Virus record (IMG/VR): IMGVR_UViG_2693429713_000022
Coordinates: 1-6,779 of that record
Length of the DNA stretch: 6,779 bases
Direction: 5' to 3' (one strand)
Source of the DNA: a virus
Lineage: Duplodnaviria > Heunggongvirae > Uroviricota > Caudoviricetes
Part shown: positions 1 to 6,779 of the stretch, piece after piece
Layout: each line of letters begins with the position of its first letter
Numbering within the stretch: the stretch's first letter is position 1
Made by a program: the position numbers and the translations under genes
Notes under the pieces: model-generated
Told to the model about the DNA's origin: nothing
Seen by the model: only the letters and a program-made list of their open reading frames with translations
Databases searched by the model: none

Positions 1-12
1 GGTTTGGGAGAA
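1..12. other. Inner half of a candidate Din-family crossover site (site A); core and outer arm would lie just upstream of the window
   Basis: GGTTTGGGAGAA is the exact reverse complement of the 12-bp arm TTCTCCCAAACC found in sites B and C. Only half the site is visible, so this is provisional. Confidence 0.45.
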
Positions 13-453
13 GCGGCAAAACGAAATGTGGGCAACGGGGAAAACCAAATCCCTGATATGTCTTTCTGGACGGTTACTGGTGGCAATGGAAATTTTGTGA
101 TTCGTCAACCTGACGGGCTAATCATTCAGATGGTTACTGTAAGTATAAGCGGTCCAGTGGCGATGAATGGAATGACTGATAATGCTTATGCCATTACAGG
201 TTCTAATAAGTCTTATATTGCCACAGCCACATTGCCCTTTGTATTTCCTAATAAGGTGCTGGGCGTTATCCCTCTGGTATCAACAACAGCTTATGGTGGT
301 GTATCCAGTAATATTACAGGTTCATACGCGACGGCGGTTTGTTCTTTTGCCGCTGTCAGGGGGAATAATACGATTGTGTTCAAAGTCGACAAACCACTGA
401 ATGCAGCCTTTCCTTCAGATACCAGCGTCTCAGCGTTAATCATTGGACGGTAA
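1..453 (+). CDS. Tail-fibre protein, C-terminal receptor-binding cassette (partial; 5' part of the gene lies upstream of the window); left copy of the inverted repeat
   Basis: Open frame from position 1 (GLGEAAKRNVG...ALIIGR) ending at TAA 451-453, followed 2 nt later by a Tfa-family gene, the usual tail-fibre/chaperone pairing. The same 149 aa are encoded on the minus strand at 2512-2958. Gly/Ser/Thr/Asn-rich composition typical of fibre distal domains. No start codon in the window. Confidence 0.8.
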   Translation, partial: GLGEAAKRNVGNGENQIPDMSFWTVTGGNGNFVIRQPDGLIIQMVTVSISGPVAMNGMTDNAYAITGSNKSYIATATLPFVFPNKVLGVIPLVSTTAYGGVSSNITGSYATAVCSFAAVRGNNTIVFKVDKPLNAAFPSDTSVSALIIGR

Positions 454-455
454 GA

Positions 456-899
456 ATGAACTCAGTATTCTTTTCACCCGCAAGTAAAAGTTTTTATCTG
501 CAAGAATTGTTTCCAGAATATGAGGATGCGGGAACGCTTCCTGATGATGTTATTGAAATTACCAGAGAAACATATGAGCAATTTCTTGGGCTGCATCCAG
601 AAGGGAAAGAAATTGGCGCTGACAGTTCAGGACGGCCAATATGGATTAATTCCCCGCCGCCTTCAAAAGAGGATGAGATGCTGGCGGCTGAAATGAAAAA
701 GATATCTTTGGTTTCAGAAGTCAATACCTACATCAATACCCATCAGTGGCCTGGCAAAGCTGCTATTGGTCGTCTGAAAGGTTACGAGCTGGAACAATAT
801 AATTTATGGCTGGATTATCTGGACGCACTGGAACTGGTTGATACCTCCAGTGCTCCAGATATTGAATGGCCTACGCCTCCGGTAGTTCAGGCCAGATGA
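456..899 (+). CDS. Tail-fibre assembly protein (Tfa family), 147 aa
   Basis: ATG at 456, 2 nt after the fibre stop. C-terminal motif [26 protein letters not shown] resembles the conserved Tfa/Mu-U-type C-terminus and is shared in pattern with the convergent Tfa gene ([28 protein letters not shown]). Its first 54 codons lie inside IR-L. Confidence 0.8.
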   Translation: MNSVFFSPASKSFYLQELFPEYEDAGTLPDDVIEITRETYEQFLGLHPEGKEIGADSSGRPIWINSPPPSKEDEMLAAEMKKISLVSEVNTYINTHQWPGKAAIGRLKGYELEQYNLWLDYLDALELVDTSSAPDIEWPTPPVVQAR

Positions 900-1476
900 C
901 ATCCGGCGCGGTGCTGGTATCTGTTGCAGTCACCGCGTCAATGTAATCCAGCACAGCGTTAAGCCGGGTTGTTTCTGCCTGCGTCAGCTTCCGCCCGGCC
1001 TGCAATTTCAGCTGAATCAGACTAATGGAAGCCATAGCAGCATCAATCAGTGACTGGCGCCGTACTTCTGCCGCGTCTACTGCGGCGTTATGCTGTGCCT
1101 CAGTATCGGTCACCCATTTCTCACCATCCCATTTATCGTATGACGTTAACGGGGCGATAGTGGTTGTATTTTCAGGGTAATCACCCGGAACTGTGATTTC
1201 TTTTGATTCTCCTGTTTCGGTGCTATAGACGATTTCACCGCGATGGTCTGGCACATATTCCCATGAGTTAAAATCTGCAGAACGGCAAATTGCATAACCA
1301 GCTTTATATGAGCCAGGAGCATCTAAACAGGAACATGCCGGGATACCAACACCCACAGCAAGATATTCAGTTGATGTGGAAATATATTCCCGTGTTTCAC
1401 CATCATAATTATAAACGGTAATGTCTCCGGCCTTTGTGGCGATGAGTTCATTATTTAATACAGCTTTACTTATCAT
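871..1476 (-). CDS. Tail-fibre assembly protein (Tfa family), 201 aa, partner of the 253-aa fibre gene
   Basis: Start ATG (minus strand) at 1474-1476 overlaps the TGA stop of the upstream fibre gene as ATGA (1473-1476), suggesting translational coupling. Conserved Tfa C-terminal motif. Its 3' end overlaps the convergent Tfa gene by 29 bp (871-899). Confidence 0.8.
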
Positions 1477-2234
1477 GCAGCCCTCACAATATAATTAAAG
1501 GCGATGTTACGGGAGCGGGTTTCAGATGCTGTGCGAACTGAGCGAGATGCGTCGAATGTCCAGTTATAAGCGCCATAACCCTCAATAATTTCGGCTTCCT
1601 TTAGACCTGTAGATAATACTTGCCCATGTTGACTAAATGGCCCTGAACTAAGTACGTCTCTAAAAAGCTGGGTACGCCCAAAAGAACCAACAATATTCTG
1701 AATTGCATCATTCTGTGCAGATAATAAGTTACGACCAGAGTCAATCCCGCGCCCATCATCCCAGCCACGAATAAATTCACCGCGTAAATCTGGTAATTTT
1801 AATGTTGGGTAAGCCTTTGCCAGATTTGGGTACTTTTCAGAAGAAAATACTGCTCCGTTACATTTTAGCCACCCCGTTGGCGGAGTGGCGGAAGGCCACG
1901 GAACAGGCACACCAACGGGTAATGCCGAACCTTCTCCCAAACCAAGGTTTTCGAGAGCCGTTTTCACCGTGCCATCAGATTTGATATCGCCAAACGGATT
2001 CTTGCGGCTTAACAGCAGCGCACGAAGCGCGGTAAGCAGCTGGTCATGCCGCCCCTTCTCCAGGCTGGCACCGGATGCCTCCACCACGCTGCAGAGTTCT
2101 TCCTGCAACATGTCAAAGTAGTCATCATCCAGATCGGTGGCAGGTGTGCCGGTCTGGGGGTTACCACGGGTAAAACCGTTCTTACCCGCGCCGAACTTAT
2201 CCTTCTGCGCGGTTTTCGTGTCTATACGATGCAT
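1473..2234 (-). CDS. Small tail-fibre protein, 253 aa, with N-terminal fibre-attachment-type motif and phage tail-collar-like domain
   Basis: GGAG ribosome-binding site (plus-strand CTCC 2241-2244) 6 nt upstream of ATG 2232-2234. N-terminus [21 protein letters not shown]...[20 protein letters not shown] resembles conserved tail-fibre N-termini of the Mu S / P2 H type. The segment [12 protein letters not shown]...YPNLAKAYP...[17 protein letters not shown] (about 1746-1901) matches the tail-collar signature as I remember it. Crossover site B lies inside the gene at codons about 93-101. Confidence 0.8.
1932..1957. other. Candidate Din-family (gix/hix/cix/pix-type) 26-bp crossover site B
   Basis: TTCTCCCAAACC-AA-GGTTTTCGAGAG: two 12-bp imperfect inverted arms (9 of 12 positions symmetric) around a 2-bp AA core with the AAACC/GGTTT inner motif. 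It matches the hixL sequence I recall (TTCTTGAAAACCAAGGTTTTTGATAA) at about 20 of 26 positions. It sits at the constant/variable junction of the fibre gene, encoding ...ENLGLGE... on the minus strand. Confidence 0.65.
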
Positions 2235-2257
2235 GGATTACTCCGGATATTTAAAAA

Positions 2258-2509
2258 TTACGTAGGTATGCGAAGGGCAGAGTTTGTTAAGCACACACTC
2301 GACAACGGTGTCGCCCCAGATACGCAGTGCGGAATCACAGGGATCACGCCAATTTCTTTCCCTTCTGGATGCAGCCCAAGAAATTGCTCATATGTTTCTC
2401 TGGTAATTTCAATAACATCATCAGGAAGCGTTCCCGCATCCTCATATTCTGGAAACAATTCTTGCAGATAAAAACTTTTACTTGCGGGTGAAAAGAATAC
2501 TGAGTTCAT
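2258..2509 (-). pseudogene. Truncated Tfa remnant: 54 N-terminal codons from IR-R fused to 29 unrelated codons
   Basis: The first 54 aa are identical to the Tfa gene at 456-617. After the inverted-repeat boundary (2347/2346) the frame continues into unrelated sequence ([29 protein letters not shown]) and stops at 2258-2260, 83 aa total versus 147 aa for the intact copy. Confidence 0.55.
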
Positions 2510-2964
2510 TCTTACCGTCCAATGATTAACGCTGAGACGCTGGTATCTGAAGGAAAGGCTGCATTCAGTGGTTTGTCGACTTTGAACACAATCGTATTAT
2601 TCCCCCTGACAGCGGCAAAAGAACAAACCGCCGTCGCGTATGAACCTGTAATATTACTGGATACACCACCATAAGCTGTTGTTGATACCAGAGGGATAAC
2701 GCCCAGCACCTTATTAGGAAATACAAAGGGCAATGTGGCTGTGGCAATATAAGACTTATTAGAACCTGTAATGGCATAAGCATTATCAGTCATTCCATTC
2801 ATCGCCACTGGACCGCTTATACTTACAGTAACCATCTGAATGATTAGCCCGTCAGGTTGACGAATCACAAAATTTCCATTGCCACCAGTAACCGTCCAGA
2901 AAGACATATCAGGGATTTGGTTTTCCCCGTTGCCCACATTTCGTTTTGCCGCTTCTCCCAAACC
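2347..2964. repeat. Inverted repeat, right copy (IR-R), partner of 1-618
   Basis: See IR-L. The outer end at 2964 is set by the window start (position 1 pairs with 2964) and coincides with the end of the 12-bp arm of crossover site C, so the repeat may end at the recombination site. Confidence 0.9.
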
Positions 2965-3006
2965 AACGTTTATGAAAATGCAGAAATAACGAGCAAATGG
3001 CATCAT
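2512..3006 (-). CDS. Tail-fibre C-terminal cassette, pin-proximal copy; apparently lacks an N-terminal constant part in this orientation (silent or fragment cassette)
   Basis: Encodes the same 149 aa as 1-453 on the minus strand. The ORF extends only 14 codons beyond crossover site C to an ATG at 3004-3006 (MMPFARYFCIFINV...) with no fibre-like N-terminal domain. This resembles the short fibre fragment gene next to pin in e14, as I recall it. Confidence 0.6.
   Translation of the reverse strand: MMPFARYFCIFINVGLGEAAKRNVGNGENQIPDMSFWTVTGGNGNFVIRQPDGLIIQMVTVSISGPVAMNGMTDNAYAITGSNKSYIATATLPFVFPNKVLGVIPLVSTTAYGGVSSNITGSYATAVCSFAAVRGNNTIVFKVDKPLNAAFPSDTSVSALIIGR
2953..2978. other. Candidate Din-family crossover site C, next to the invertase gene
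   Basis: TTCTCCCAAACC-AA-CGTTTATGAAAA: left arm and AA core identical to site B, right arm more degenerate. It lies 55 bp upstream of the invertase start, the position where gix/cix-type sites sit relative to gin/cin. On the minus strand it encodes ...INVGLGE... in the same frame as site B. Confidence 0.6.
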
Positions 3007-3032
3007 TCCTGCTTTTGTCAGGGAGATCTACC

Positions 3033-3587
3033 ATGCTTATTGGCTATGTACGTGTGTCAACAAATGACCAGAACACAGATCTACAACGTAATGCGCTGAA
3101 CTGTGCAGGATGCGAGCTGATTTTTGAAGACAAGATAAGCGGTACAAAGTCCGAAAGGCCGGGACTGAAAAAACTGCTCAGGACATTATCGGCAGGCGAT
3201 ACGCTGGTGGTCTGGAAACTGGACCGACTGGGGCGCAGTATGCGGCATCTTGTCGTGCTGGTGGAGGAGTTGCGCGAACGAGGCATCAACTTTCGTAGTC
3301 TGACGGATTCAATTGATACCAGTACCCCAATGGGGCGCTTTTTCTTTCATGTGATGGGGGCCCTGGCTGAAATGGAACGAGAACTGATTGTTGAACGAAC
3401 AAAAGCTGGACTGGAAGCTGCTCGCGCACAGGGACGAATTGGTGGACGTCGTCCCAAACTTACACCAGAACAATGGGCACAAGCCGGACGATTAATTGCA
3501 TCAGGAGTTCCGCGCCAGAAAGTTGCGATTATCTATGATGTTGGCGTATCGACTTTGTATCAGAGGTTTCCGGCAGGAGATAAATAA
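3033..3587 (+). CDS. pin: Serine DNA invertase of the Pin/Gin/Cin/Hin (Din) family, 184 aa
   Basis: N-terminus MLIGYVRVSTNDQNTDLQRNAL is the hallmark Din-invertase start, with the catalytic serine at residue 9 (codon 3057-3059). The rest is near-collinear with Gin/Cin as I remember them (GDTLVVWKLDRLGRSM, GRFFFHVMGALAEMERELI, and a C-terminal HTH region GVPRQKVAIIYDVGVSTLYQRF). GGGAG ribosome-binding site at 3021-3025, 7 nt before the ATG. The track ORF starts at 2997, but 3033 is the supported start. Family assignment is confident; the pin symbol is by context (e14-like neighbours), not proven orthology. Confidence 0.93.
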   Translation: MLIGYVRVSTNDQNTDLQRNALNCAGCELIFEDKISGTKSERPGLKKLLRTLSAGDTLVVWKLDRLGRSMRHLVVLVEELRERGINFRSLTDSIDTSTPMGRFFFHVMGALAEMERELIVERTKAGLEAARAQGRIGGRRPKLTPEQWAQAGRLIASGVPRQKVAIIYDVGVSTLYQRFPAGDK

Positions 3588-3785
3588 AGACACAGCTCGT
3601 CGAATTCAAGAACGTGTGAGCCAATCTCATGATGATTCATTATTTTCACATAGAGTCAATGACAAAAAACGGCTGCAAGGTAAACCACAACGATGGCTTT
3701 GTTAATTGATAGCGGTTTTGGTACTAAATGATACAAATTAAAATGAATATCCTAGTGAATTACAACAATTTCAGGAGGAAATAGT

Positions 3786-3998
3786 ATGCCAAGAAAAACG
3801 CTAGAAAATTTGGTAAATGTTGCACGTCAGACTCAGGAAATAGCGGATAAGAGAAGCCGTTTTTTCGGGTATCTTGAACAGCATGGCTTGAAGAGGAATG
3901 AGGATAGTGCTCACCTTTTTGCTATGCATTTACGGTTGCAACACAATGAAAGAGATAATCTTGTCCATGAACTGATGTCCGGATTACATCATAAATAG
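3786..3998 (+). CDS. Hypothetical small protein, 70 aa, basic and His-rich; function unknown
   Basis: Strong AGGAGG ribosome-binding site at 3773-3778, 7 nt before ATG 3786. AT-rich. Convergent with the two-gene operon. I recognise no family. Confidence 0.5.
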   Translation: MPRKTLENLVNVARQTQEIADKRSRFFGYLEQHGLKRNEDSAHLFAMHLRLQHNERDNLVHELMSGLHHK

Positions 3999-4032
3999 TG
4001 CATCATTCGAGCAAGAATATTATAAGACAATA

Positions 4033-4055
4033 AACCAGCCAAAAACTGGCTGGTT
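4033..4055. terminator. Candidate bidirectional intrinsic terminator between convergent genes
   Basis: Hairpin AACCAGCC(A)-loop-(T)GGCTGGTT with an 8-9 bp stem, flanked by T-rich sequence on the minus-strand side (TATTGTCTTATAAT) and a TTTTT run 10 nt away on the plus-strand side. Lies between the 70-aa gene stop (3998) and the 114-aa gene stop (4083). U tracts are imperfect. Confidence 0.5.
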
Positions 4056-4082
4056 GAACGTTAACTTTTTGAATTTAATCAA

Positions 4083-4427
4083 TTAACTTTGGTGTATGTC
4101 TTGGTAAGTCTCATCCGTCAGAGCCAATTTCATGCAAATATCATCGTTAAGACTGACAATATCTTCGATCAGTTTATTGATCTCGAAATCGTTAAGTTTT
4201 GATACTGTTGCTTGAACTCGCCCCTCATCGCCAGTGGCATCAAACTTAGTCAGTTCCTTACATAATTCATCGAACCTGCTTTGTAAGGCATTTGGAATAT
4301 CATCGGCTGTTTTAAGATGCCCAAGGCTAAAAACATACGAATTAATCAAGCGTTCTTGAATACTTCCATGGCCCGCAAGAGTAAGTACTGCAGTATGAAA
4401 TTTTTCATGTGCATACTTTAAGGACAT
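4083..4427 (-). CDS. Hypothetical protein, 114 aa, mildly acidic; second gene of the cargo operon
   Basis: GGAGA ribosome-binding site (plus-strand TCTCC 4434-4438) 6 nt before ATG 4425-4427. Lies 51 bp downstream of the 343-aa gene on the same strand. AT-rich. No recognisable motif. Confidence 0.6.
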   Translation of the reverse strand: MSLKYAHEKFHTAVLTLAGHGSIQERLINSYVFSLGHLKTADDIPNALQSRFDELCKELTKFDATGDEGRVQATVSKLNDFEINKLIEDIVSLNDDICMKLALTDETYQDIHQS

Positions 4428-4478
4428 ATCTGGTCTCCGTGACTTATAACCTCAACCGACATAAATGGGGTTAAGTGA

Positions 4479-5510
4479 TTATTCTGAAACAATAGTGTTG
4501 AACTGACCTATAGAAACAGCACCCTTTTCAATTACCTCTAAGTAACTGATTTTAATATGAGAGTTGTTTGACAAAGCGTCAACAATAGCTGTCAACTCAT
4601 CTTGGGTGATAACATCAGCTGAAGCTTTGATTGTGAAGCATTCGTCATTAGAGACCCTAACAACGTTAATATTAATATCCTGATTTGTTGGCCCTGTTCT
4701 GGTTACACCTTTGATGGAAAATATATCAGTTCGTTCTTTACGTTCTCTATCTACAGATTGTCGGCTGTTGTAGGTATTTAGGTCTTGTCGTGTTAGTTTC
4801 TCATTTCCTAAAGTCACGGTTTCGACAGTAGGATCAGCAGCTAATTGCTTCACTAAAGCACTTTTACCTGCTTGTCCGTGACTAGTAACTTTATCGCTAA
4901 TCGCTGATTTCCCATAGATTTTATAATCTAATGTTGCTTCTATGGCTTTGTTTATGCCATCGGATGTGGTTTTTGCAATTTCAACCTGCCGATCAGTTGC
5001 ATGTCTTTCTGTTACGGCATTTTCTGAAATGTAGTGATAACCACATGTGCTGGCCGCGCCAACCATTGTGATTATAACAAGCATTTTCTGCCAGCCGTTC
5101 AGTCCAGACATAGTATCTCGCAAAAAATCAGTTACTGCGTTGATGATCTTGTCAGTGGTGCCTTCCGCATCACTAGAACCTTCGCTAATTTTAAAATTTA
5201 TATCAAGTCGTTGCTTGTCTTCATTAGTCAAGCGTTGAAGATTCTGCGATCCGTATCGTATGGTTGCAAACGCCCGCTGTATCTCCTCGTTGAGCATTGA
5301 CATACCAAACAACATTGCTGATGTAATTGATGAATGATACCGCTCTCCTTTTACATTTATGTCTAAGGATGGCCAGCCTGCAAACTTTACGTTAGGGAAA
5401 ATAAACTCTTTAGAATCAAGCCCCTCTCGGGCTTTCATTTCTTCCAGAAAGTTTAGAAAATCATCTTCACTACGGATCAGAAAATCAATCGAATCCACAG
5501 TAGCTTCCAT
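4479..5510 (-). CDS. Hypothetical protein, 343 aa, with a central hydrophobic (possible membrane) segment; first gene of the cargo operon
   Basis: Long ORF in an AT-rich region. AAGGA ribosome-binding site (plus-strand TCCTT 5518-5522) 7 nt before ATG 5508-5510. Hydrophobic stretch GWQKMLVIITMVGAASTCGYHYI at about residues 139-161 (roughly 5028-5096). No catalytic motif I can name. Confidence 0.75.
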   Translation of the reverse strand: MEATVDSIDFLIRSEDDFLNFLEEMKAREGLDSKEFIFPNVKFAGWPSLDINVKGERYHSSITSAMLFGMSMLNEEIQRAFATIRYGSQNLQRLTNEDKQRLDINFKISEGSSDAEGTTDKIINAVTDFLRDTMSGLNGWQKMLVIITMVGAASTCGYHYISENAVTERHATDRQVEIAKTTSDGINKAIEATLDYKIYGKSAISDKVTSHGQAGKSALVKQLAADPTVETVTLGNEKLTRQDLNTYNSRQSVDRERKERTDIFSIKGVTRTGPTNQDININVVRVSNDECFTIKASADVITQDELTAIVDALSNNSHIKISYLEVIEKGAVSIGQFNTIVSE

Positions 5511-5560
5511 ATGAATATCCTTATTAAATTCTCATTCGGTTACTGTTTATTGTTGACTGA

Positions 5561-5589
5561 TCAATAAAAAAGCCCGCAATTTGCGGGCT
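5561..5589 (-). terminator. Rho-independent terminator on the minus strand, downstream of ssrA and directly upstream of the cargo operon
   Basis: Minus strand reads GCCCGCAA-ATT-TTGCGGGC (stem from 5571-5589) followed by TTTTTTATTGA (5570-5561). Confidence 0.65.
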
Positions 5590-5719
5590 TCTTTCACACT
5601 TGAGAGCCGCGGCTCCTTTGCGTATCCTTTTTTGTCTCCTCACCGTCTGGTCGGTGTCCTGCTGAGACTGCTAACTTCCTGTTTTTGTTGGTGTTGTCCT
5701 TACACCGTCCAATCATGAT

Positions 5720-6082
5720 TGGTGGAGCTGGCGGGAGTTGAACCCGCGTCCGAAATTCCTACATCCTCGGTACTACATGCTTAGTCAGTCTTTACATTCG
5801 CTTGCCAGCTGCGGACGGACACGCCACTAACAAACTAGCCTGATTAAGTTTTAACGCTTCAACCCCAGGCAGGGCTTCCACGCGATCTCTTTTGGGTTTG
5901 ACCTCTCTTGATCCCCGTCCTAAGAGCGGAGGCTAGGGAGAGAGGGCTCTAAGCAGGTTATTAAGCTGCTAAAGCGTAGTTTTCGTCGTTTGCGACTATT
6001 TTTTGCGGCTTTTTACGAGGCCAACCGCCCCTCGGCATGCACCTTGGGTTTCGCAAATCCCGTCGAATCCAGAATCAGCCCC
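5720..6082 (-). ncRNA. ssrA: tmRNA (SsrA), 363 nt
   Basis: Reverse complement of 6059-6082 is GGGGCTGATTCTGGATTCGACGGG (tmRNA 5' end) and of 5720-5760 ends ...GGGTTCAACTCCCGCCAGCTCCACCA (tRNA-like 3' end with CCA). The tag reading frame GCAAACGACGAAAACTACGCTTTAGCAGCTTAA (ANDENYALAA-stop) is the reverse complement of 5961-5993. Matches the E. coli-type tmRNA as I remember it along its length. Confidence 0.95.
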
Positions 6083-6096
6083 AATGTGTAAAGGTA

Positions 6097-6102
6097 AGTA
6101 TA
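6097..6102 (-). promoter_or_regulatory. Possible -10 element (TATACT) of the ssrA promoter
   Basis: TATACT on the minus strand about 14 nt upstream of the mature tmRNA 5' end, consistent with a short processed leader. I found no convincing -35, so this is tentative. Confidence 0.3.
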
Positions 6103-6296
6103 CCAGATTTATGAGCGCCATGACCAGCCTCAATGGCGTTATCGTTAAAGATTTAGCACCCATGTAGCCTGATTTTTATTCGATTAAGCAATGGGATGGC
6201 AACATTTGTGTCGGATGTGATAGCCAATAAGATGTTGATTCGCGCCGCCGGAGAGGGAGGCGCGGTGAGGAACTGGTCAATAATTGGAGTGCAGGT

Positions 6297-6779
6297 TTAA
6301 CGGTGGGCGTTTTTCATGATACGTGCTTTATCCACCTGCCATTCGCGTTCTTTGATATCTGAACGTTTATCGTGCTGTTTTTTACCTTTGGCGACGCCGA
6401 TTTTCACTTTGCACCAGGCATTTTTCCAGTACAGGGAGAGCGCCACTACGGTATAGCCTTCTCGATTGACGCGACCGTACAATGAGTCCAGTTCGCGCTG
6501 GTTGAGAAGTAACTTGCGGGTACGGGTAGGATCGCACACCACATGCGTGGAGGCCACGGCCATTGGCGTGATGTTAGCGCCAAACAGAAATGCCTCTCCG
6601 TCACGCAGAAGGACGTAGCTGTCGCTGATATTGGCTTTTCCTGCGCGCAGGGATTTAACCTCCCAGCCTTGCAGGGCAAGTCCCGCTTCGAACTCTTCTT
6701 CGATAAAGTATTCGTGACGGGCGCGCTTGTTAAGCGCGATGGTCGCTGAACCAGGTTTATGTGCTTTTTTCTTCGTCAT
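6297..6779 (-). CDS. smpB: SsrA-binding protein SmpB, 160 aa
   Basis: Full-length [75 protein letters not shown]... with the start codon at the last three bases of the window (6777-6779). Directly upstream of ssrA on the same strand, the canonical smpB-ssrA arrangement. Confidence 0.95.

Follow-up and report, generated by a model that had tools for sequence, protein, structure and literature searches.

How did the beginning of a tail fibre assembly (Tfa) gene come to be joined to the DNA that stands in front of a complete tail-fibre gene? The question is raised by the stretch of 6,779 nucleotides analysed here (the window), the minus strand of which carries 54 Tfa codons (2509-2348), 29 further codons and a TAA stop (2260-2258), with the GGAG (2244-2241) and the ATG (2234-2232) of a 253-aa fibre gene following 3' of that stop, exactly as laid out in the preliminary description of this DNA. 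That description had interpreted the arrangement as the scar of an illegitimate or site-specific recombination, in which codons unrelated to Tfa and about 1 kb of extra material had been acquired, possibly from the fibre module of another prophage. The analysis presented below leads us to a different reading, which we hold to be somewhat probable, namely that positions 2235-2346 and the truncated Tfa at 2347-2509 together form the joint of a 1,021-bp tandem duplication, later inverted by Pin, in an e14-type P region. Neither a tandem-duplication joint carried into inverted orientation by Pin nor the option of an artefact had been part of the earlier reading.

A cryptic e14-like island, adjoining the 3' end of ssrA (tmRNA; 5720..6082, minus strand), comes to its end in the window, with smpB (6297-6779) lying beyond ssrA. 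Its right edge coincides with the smpB start codon, and the window looks to have been trimmed to the gene boundaries of a draft contig. Going leftward from ssrA, one meets first three genes without annotation, then a pinE-type invertase and finally a tail-fibre region with two tfa genes, one complete 253-aa fibre gene and two copies of a cassette, Sv1. The serine DNA invertase (184 aa; 3033..3587, plus strand) matches Resolvase (1.5e-51) and HTH_7 (3.6e-13), and the identical protein carries the pinE annotation in relatives (WP_000904997.1). At the other end of the window, the first of two repeat copies, R1 (1..618, plus strand), forms the left arm of an inverted repeat: it begins with half of crossover site A, continues through Sv1, which is a variable cassette for the fibre C-terminus with its stop at 453, and extends 163 nt into Tfa1; the inner half of site A occupies positions 1-12 (GGTTTGGGAGAA), base 1 directly following the TT core of the site. 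Tfa1 (456..899, plus strand) is a complete 147-aa tail fibre assembly protein cognate to Sv1, and Tfa2 (871..1476, minus strand; 201 aa) is cognate to a second cassette, Sv2; both are Caudo_TAP proteins. In the complete fibre gene (1473..2234, minus strand), which has a Collar domain, the constant part Sc, with its e14 StfP-type start, is fused to Sv2 at crossover site B (1932..1957; TTCTCCCAAACC AA GGTTTTCGAGAG, core AA at 1944-1945). The right arm of the inverted repeat, R2 (2347..2964, minus strand), contains the first 163 nt of Tfa1, Sv1 and the inner half of crossover site C (2953..2978; TTCTCCCAAACC AA CGTTTATGAAAA, core at 2965-2966). Here a StfE-type, pin-proximal ORF of 164 aa (2512..3006, minus strand) is made up of a short pin-side start and Sv1, and gives a weak Gp53-like_C match just under the Pfam cut-off. 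Sites B and C are direct repeats at a spacing of 1,021 bp, and site A is inverted relative to both.

This is the organization of an e14-type P region: a serine invertase of the Hin/Gin/Cin/Pin family is encoded beside the segment, 26-bp crossover sites with the published motif stand in inverted orientation around the cassettes (A being a half-site), a constant fibre N-terminus lies outside, and two alternative C-terminal cassettes, each with its cognate tfa, lie inside. The 16-nt crossover motif of the e14 P segment, TTGGTTTGGGAGAAGG / CCTTCTCCCAAACCAA, is the same as that of the sites found here, and inversion of the e14 segment by PinE, PinQ and PinR has been documented experimentally (PMC12529663), with clonal cultures containing both orientations together (PMC4272514). 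The window locus shares with e14 of K-12 (ymfQ - stfP - tfaP / tfaE - stfE - pinE) its gene order, the StfP-type constant N-terminus and ymfQ/fibre boundary (99%), the pinE-type invertase and the two alternative C-terminal cassettes with a tfa of their own. It differs from e14 in lying at ssrA instead of icd, in the cassettes themselves (Sv1 and Sv2), in being an IS3-truncated remnant in its closest relatives and in having a third crossover site and a second copy of Sv1 and the first 54 Tfa codons, and by the model set out below also of Sc and the ymfQ 3' end, joined at a position that is not a crossover site.

To locate that joint, we compared the pieces on either side of it. Positions 1-618 and 2347-2964 form a perfect 618-nt inverted repeat (100% identity), which is far beyond chance, and the identity stops exactly at 2346|2347. 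Because 2347-2964 is a perfect inverted copy of 1-618, the first 54 residues of the 83-aa ORF that crosses the joint (2258..2509, minus strand) are identical to the N-terminus of Tfa1. Its remaining 29 codons, which had been called unrelated, are the 3' end of ymfQ translated in the +1 frame, that is, one base off. The ymfQ fragment (2238-2346, minus strand) comprises 1 nt, the last 35 codons and a TAA at 2240-2238, contains the GGAG of the fibre gene, and is followed by the normal 3-nt spacer between ymfQ and the fibre gene (2235-2237, minus strand). Alignment to e14 and other P-region sequences, as had been proposed, thus places the novel joint at 2346..2347, where nt 163 of Tfa1 meets the third base of ymfQ codon 155.

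The DNA on the fibre side of the joint is in its usual place. ymfQ is a Mu gp48-type baseplate gene that lies directly upstream of this fibre gene in e14 and in about 1,470 genomes, and window positions 2150-2345 correspond to the ymfQ/stfP (ycfK) boundary of e14, mostly at 96-100% identity across some 1,470 complete E. coli genomes, K-12 included. The proposed test of whether 2258-2346 is homologous to the upstream regions of fibre genes elsewhere thus has a positive outcome, except that the stretch is not merely upstream DNA, being the coding end of ymfQ with the fibre RBS inside it; as in e14, 2235-2346 runs directly into the fibre gene. The identical 253-aa fibre protein was examined in ten public contexts, in every one of which its gene is preceded by a complete ymfQ (190-194 aa); none has the Tfa stub there. 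The out-of-context element at the joint is hence the Tfa stub, while 2235-2346 keeps its normal fibre-gene context. As for the 83-aa ORF itself, there was no Pfam match, the Caudo_TAP score being lost together with about 60% of the domain, and PHROG 188 (Tfa) was matched by residues 1-54 only. No new promoter or terminator was found at the joint, promoter-like sites there being rarer than in shuffled sequences. The ORF appears to have arisen by accident, as a fusion whose tail is nonsense.

Both sides of the joint can be traced to a single known island. Window positions 1-2347 are the reverse complement of positions 6276-8622 of strain 602687 (NZ_CP189657), and window positions 2347-6779 equal positions 8005-12437 of the same strain, in each case with 0 mismatches; strain CD45 (NZ_CP182220) is 99.9-100% identical across the shared pieces. 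Since both flanks are 100% identical to a single 602687 island, no second prophage is needed as donor, and the suggestion that the fibre module of another prophage had taken part can be dropped. In 602687 and CD45 the island has the ordinary order for this ssrA site, with ymfQ, fibre and tfa followed by an opposite-strand tfa and fibre C-terminus and then by pinE; by contrast with the window, these islands have one copy each of the repeat units R and S, ymfQ and Tfa1 are intact across the breakpoints, and the joint is absent. Their 1,945-bp invertible segment lies in opposite orientations in the two strains, with the switch points at the site cores, and from this comparison, as well as from the breaks of draft contigs at the crossover site that are described below, a segment of this type appears to invert. 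Left of the window-homologous region, the islands of CD45 (7007-8816 of the fetched locus) and 602687 (4576-6385) are remnants: an IS3-family element has shortened ymfQ at its start, from 194 to 190 aa, a fragment of a ypjA/ehaD autotransporter is found on the far side of the IS, and the tail and baseplate genes that fuller relatives (L003-L006) have are missing.

We then searched for the joint elsewhere. The exact 83-aa product was not present in about 15 billion proteins, and a 40-mer covering the protein junction and tail had no homologue in 5.8 billion clusters. At the DNA level, none of 5,426 complete E. coli genomes aligned to a 301-bp query at a place that spans the joint, a joint-spanning 30-mer had 0 matches in GTDB species representatives, IMG/VR and JGI metagenomes, and the joint was missing from all 33 related loci that were fetched. 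In these relatives the repeat units and both wild-type breakpoint sequences are present once each. The same arrangement and an intact 83-aa product having thus been sought in related prophages and not found, the original interpretation of the joint as a rearrangement scar stands.

What kind of rearrangement could have produced it? In the mechanism that we propose, the segment would first have stood in the Sc-Sv1 orientation, as it does in CD45. An illegitimate, essentially homology-free event would next have doubled everything that lies between ymfQ codon 155 and Tfa1 codon 54, a unit composed of the ymfQ 3' end, Sc, a crossover site, Sv1 and the first 54 codons of Tfa1, and would have created in doing so a single new joint (Tfa1 codon 54 to ymfQ codon 155, out of frame) and a third crossover site. 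Two ordinary Pin inversions among the three sites would then have put one copy in inverted orientation, giving the isomer seen in the window, in which the Sc of the 253-aa fibre gene would be the duplicated second copy. We infer both the event in vivo and this order of steps; the fit of the model to the window can be stated base for base. Starting from 602687, we flipped the segment in silico to the Sc-Sv1 orientation, duplicated 1,021 bp in tandem (ymfQ nt 6277 to Tfa1 nt 163), and inverted the product first between sites 1 and 3 and then between sites 1 and 2. The resulting sequence holds all 6,779 bases of the window as an exact substring. The other pair of inversions gives the same isomer, and four isomers can be reached in all.

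Several features of the window argue for a duplication of this kind. Sites B and C enclose Sv1, Tfa1 codons 1-54, the joint, the ymfQ 3' end and Sc, a circularly permuted form of what in CD45 is one uninterrupted stretch; together with the direct orientation of the two sites, this permutation is the signature of a tandem duplication. When read in the Sc-Sv1 orientation, the joint runs head to tail, Tfa1 nt 163 and ymfQ nt 6277 having the same direction, and a duplicated unit of 1,021 bp accounts for the direct orientation of sites B and C and for their spacing of exactly this length. The extra material of about 1 kb that had been noticed between site B and pin is therefore present, the two sites (1932-1957 and 2953-2978) being separated by that distance, and it contains the ymfQ 3' end, the constant fibre part, a crossover site, Sv1 and the Tfa N-terminus; it is a second copy of the island's own DNA, so that the external origin once considered for it does not hold. 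That the breakpoints lie just 1,021 bp apart also counts for a duplication, as does the existence of natural P regions with extra crossover sites, which are described below. As in the window, spontaneous tandem and tandem-inversion duplications in enterobacteria join a downstream position to an upstream one about 1 kb off, with identical copies; the inverted copies are accounted for here by the resident invertase, as opposed to a snap-back mechanism. Counting against the model is the fact that the second copy of Sc and of the ymfQ 3' end that it requires falls outside the window, which ends at site A. The model predicts that Sc (...GCTCTCGAAAACCTT) and then a full ymfQ should lie immediately left of window base 1; this flank would be a repeat copy of window positions 1946-2346, which would explain why the sequence ends there, at a crossover site of the kind at which draft contigs routinely break.

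At the joint itself, the overlap between the two sides does not exceed 1 nt (G). We saw no direct or inverted match close to the breakpoints, and microhomology-mediated slippage or template switching is ruled out by the combination of at most 1 shared nt and no nearby matches. Of the two origins suggested in the preliminary description, the illegitimate one accords with so short an overlap. In one genome-wide survey, the junctions of those spontaneous Salmonella duplications that had been verified showed microhomology of at least 11 bp, whereas chimeras formed in vitro give 0 to few bp (PMC3411829). The window joint, with its at most 1 nt, thus lacks the microhomology typical of junctions formed in vivo, and this lowers our confidence in a tandem duplication, although homology-independent illegitimate recombination exists.

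The same measurement brings forward the strongest alternative, a rather unlikely one in our judgement, that the joint arose during library preparation or assembly, either as an in-vitro chimera (by polymerase template switch, amplification chimera or ligation) or as a wrong path through the repeat graph, the true genome having the ordinary 602687 layout. Besides showing the microhomology pattern of chimeras and not that of duplications verified in vivo, the joint is unique when compared with 5,426 complete genomes, about 15 billion proteins and three contig collections, both of its flanks are 100% identical to an existing normal island, and the window seems to lie at the end of a draft contig, interrupted where assemblies are known to break. 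With respect to the last point, the fibre product that is cut at the crossover core at the left end of the window (150 aa) was found in 1,479 blocks of public assemblies, in 1,370 of which the longest contig was shorter than 2 kb; among the matches listed, the cut product lay at the contig edge in ten of ten contigs (loci L024-L033), and none of these ten contigs with the cut 150-aa product had the window layout. In draft E. coli assemblies, contigs systematically break at Pin sites. The presence of the 618-nt repeat in unrelated prophage types, moreover, makes for tangled graphs.

Other points speak for reads that truly cross the joint, or for a real event. A k-mer mis-join requires shared sequence, of which there is none at the joint, so that reads containing the joint must exist, and rare chimeric reads are normally dropped by consensus assemblers. 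Partners in random ligation chimeras are independent of genomic distance (an argument drawn from PMC3411829) and would seldom lie 1 kb apart. In addition, the structure is exactly what would result from one common mutation and the locus's own recombinase. On balance, we leave the artefact an appreciable minority chance.

The repeat that complicates assembly also has a distribution of its own. The exact 618-nt unit of Sv1 and Tfa1 N-terminus occurs in other loci (L015, L018, L022, L026 and L033), in prophage backbones with a P2-like tail module (L026) or other baseplate types (L015, L022) no less than in e14-like islands. Since these backbones are quite different, identical receptor-binding cassettes are common to unrelated prophages. 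Parts of the window match a median of 3 places per genome.

Genuine rearrangements other than a tandem duplication followed by Pin inversion could have left the same joint, and we consider this group unlikely as a whole. A fold-back, or inverted duplication of the tandem-inversion-duplication type, in which the copy left of site A would run on into pin and ssrA, had been our first reading and was displaced by the direct orientation of sites B and C and their unit-length spacing; it is kept as a rival, as the window can be written as one fold-back of 602687 sequence and fits equally well in that form. It implies, however, either a large inverted duplication that includes smpB and ssrA or a dead-end palindrome, which would be expected to be unstable. 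A simple illegitimate inversion of 1,729 bp, from ymfQ codon 155 to Tfa1 codon 54, would have as its reciprocal joint ymfQ ...GACATGTGG | CTGACAGTTCAGG... Tfa1, with the contig then entering another, identical Tfa1/Sv1 copy of the genome. Identical R copies of the kind that it needs do exist in other prophage types, and the median of 3 window-matching places per genome is in keeping with such rearrangements generally, but two simultaneous homology-free breaks and a misassembly would be required. A deletion between two tandem copies of the island, as a third possibility, presupposes a tandem double island, and there is none among the relatives. All three are less parsimonious than one duplication followed by normal Pin flips.

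The site-specific origin raised in the preliminary description would have Pin act on secondary crossover sites in ymfQ and tfa. An apparently active invertase gene is present together with three true sites, and the related Cin invertase is known to use quasi-sites. Using a scoring matrix built from four half-sites, however, we obtained scores of 9-31 for 26-mers centred on the breakpoints, as compared with 76-78 for the true sites and a regional background of 24 +/- 7, and there is no AA/TT core common to both sides of the joint. As neither breakpoint resembles a crossover site, such an event is ruled out as far as these scores can tell, and we regard it as very improbable. Finally, the idea that the 83-aa ORF works as a short protein, such as a regulator or a chaperone fragment derived from Tfa, in an arrangement conserved in some prophages, is scarcely credible despite the retained Tfa start, its translational coupling (stop 2512-2514, start 2509) and the position of the ORF before an intact fibre gene, since the exact sequence does not occur in about 15 billion proteins, 5.8 billion clusters contain no homologue of the tail, which is out-of-frame ymfQ, about 60% of the Caudo_TAP domain is gone, and the joint is missing from all DNA collections and the 33 related loci, the 0 intact orthologues in the protein and DNA collections searched ruling out a conserved product.

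Returning to the tandem duplication and its consequences for the switch, the locus can be compared with systems in which one invertase serves more than two sites. The Min system of plasmid p15B is a multi-site invertase system of this kind. In the E. coli chromosome, we found P regions of e14 next to pin with 6-7 crossover sites in two related assemblies, L014 (GCA_019583665.1; 5150-10110) and L019 (GCA_019584205.1; 3480-8020). Each has two Sv/Tfa/Tfa/Sv cassette pairs with 94% mutual identity and 115-bp mini-segments flanked by sites, and the two assemblies show different arrangements; these are a natural multi-site, shufflon-like Pin system. Like p15B Min and these P regions, the window locus has more than two sites, one invertase and several isomers, four in its case. 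In the multi-site systems, however, every cassette is bounded by sites and the cassette pairs have diverged (94% in L014/L019), whereas the window has a joint inside two genes, and its extra site would stem, unlike theirs, from a recent and perfectly identical duplication. Under the duplication model the window isomer would hold two complete fibre genes together, Sc-Sv1 with Tfa1 and Sc-Sv2 with Tfa2; one of the four predicted isomers would have two identical Sc-Sv1 genes, and the other three would have both Sc-Sv1/Tfa1 and Sc-Sv2/Tfa2 complete.

The part of the island that separates pin from the ssrA end carries three genes (3786-3998, plus strand; 4083-4427, minus strand; 4479-5510, minus strand), for which there were no Pfam or PADLOC matches; the last, of 343 aa, matches only PHROG 6191 (function unknown; 6.8e-38). 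The relatives carry other cargo downstream of the cassette region, including a GmrSD-type enzyme (L004) and an HNH protein (L009), and a GIY-YIG (LEM-3-like) protein stands just after pin in L014, L019 and L021. The interval from pin to ssrA has the look of a variable slot for cargo or defence genes. A near-perfect 14-nt hairpin (5566-5594; AAAAAAGCCCGCAA / TTGCGGGCTTCTTT), located in the gap that separates the 343-aa gene from the 3' end of ssrA, is probably a bidirectional terminator at the island boundary.

Taken for what it is, the locus is a textbook invertible tail-fibre region and the odd stretch within it a mutation scar, not a new gene or element: the joint is a private rearrangement in a known system, with no sign of function. 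For genome scans, a 100%-identical inverted repeat that ends at a joint which is not a crossover site, at the edge of a draft contig, should first arouse suspicion of a rearrangement or of the assembly. That a real duplication has converted a two-site on/off switch into a three-site switch with two constant parts, and has perhaps broadened the set of protective fibres, is a conjecture that we consider improbable, and nothing here supports selection for a three-site switch. An Stf-type product, StfE2 of e14, has been reported to act in phage defence (PMC12529663); if the conjecture were true and if Stf-type products of cryptic P regions defend their hosts, more protective fibre proteins would be made simultaneously, and the inverted flip could hold the duplication in place, homologous recombination being unable to collapse inverted copies. 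More generally, one small duplication and a resident invertase can together mimic a puzzling inverted duplication with seemingly foreign DNA, and a third crossover site, and hence a more complex switch, can arise in a single step.
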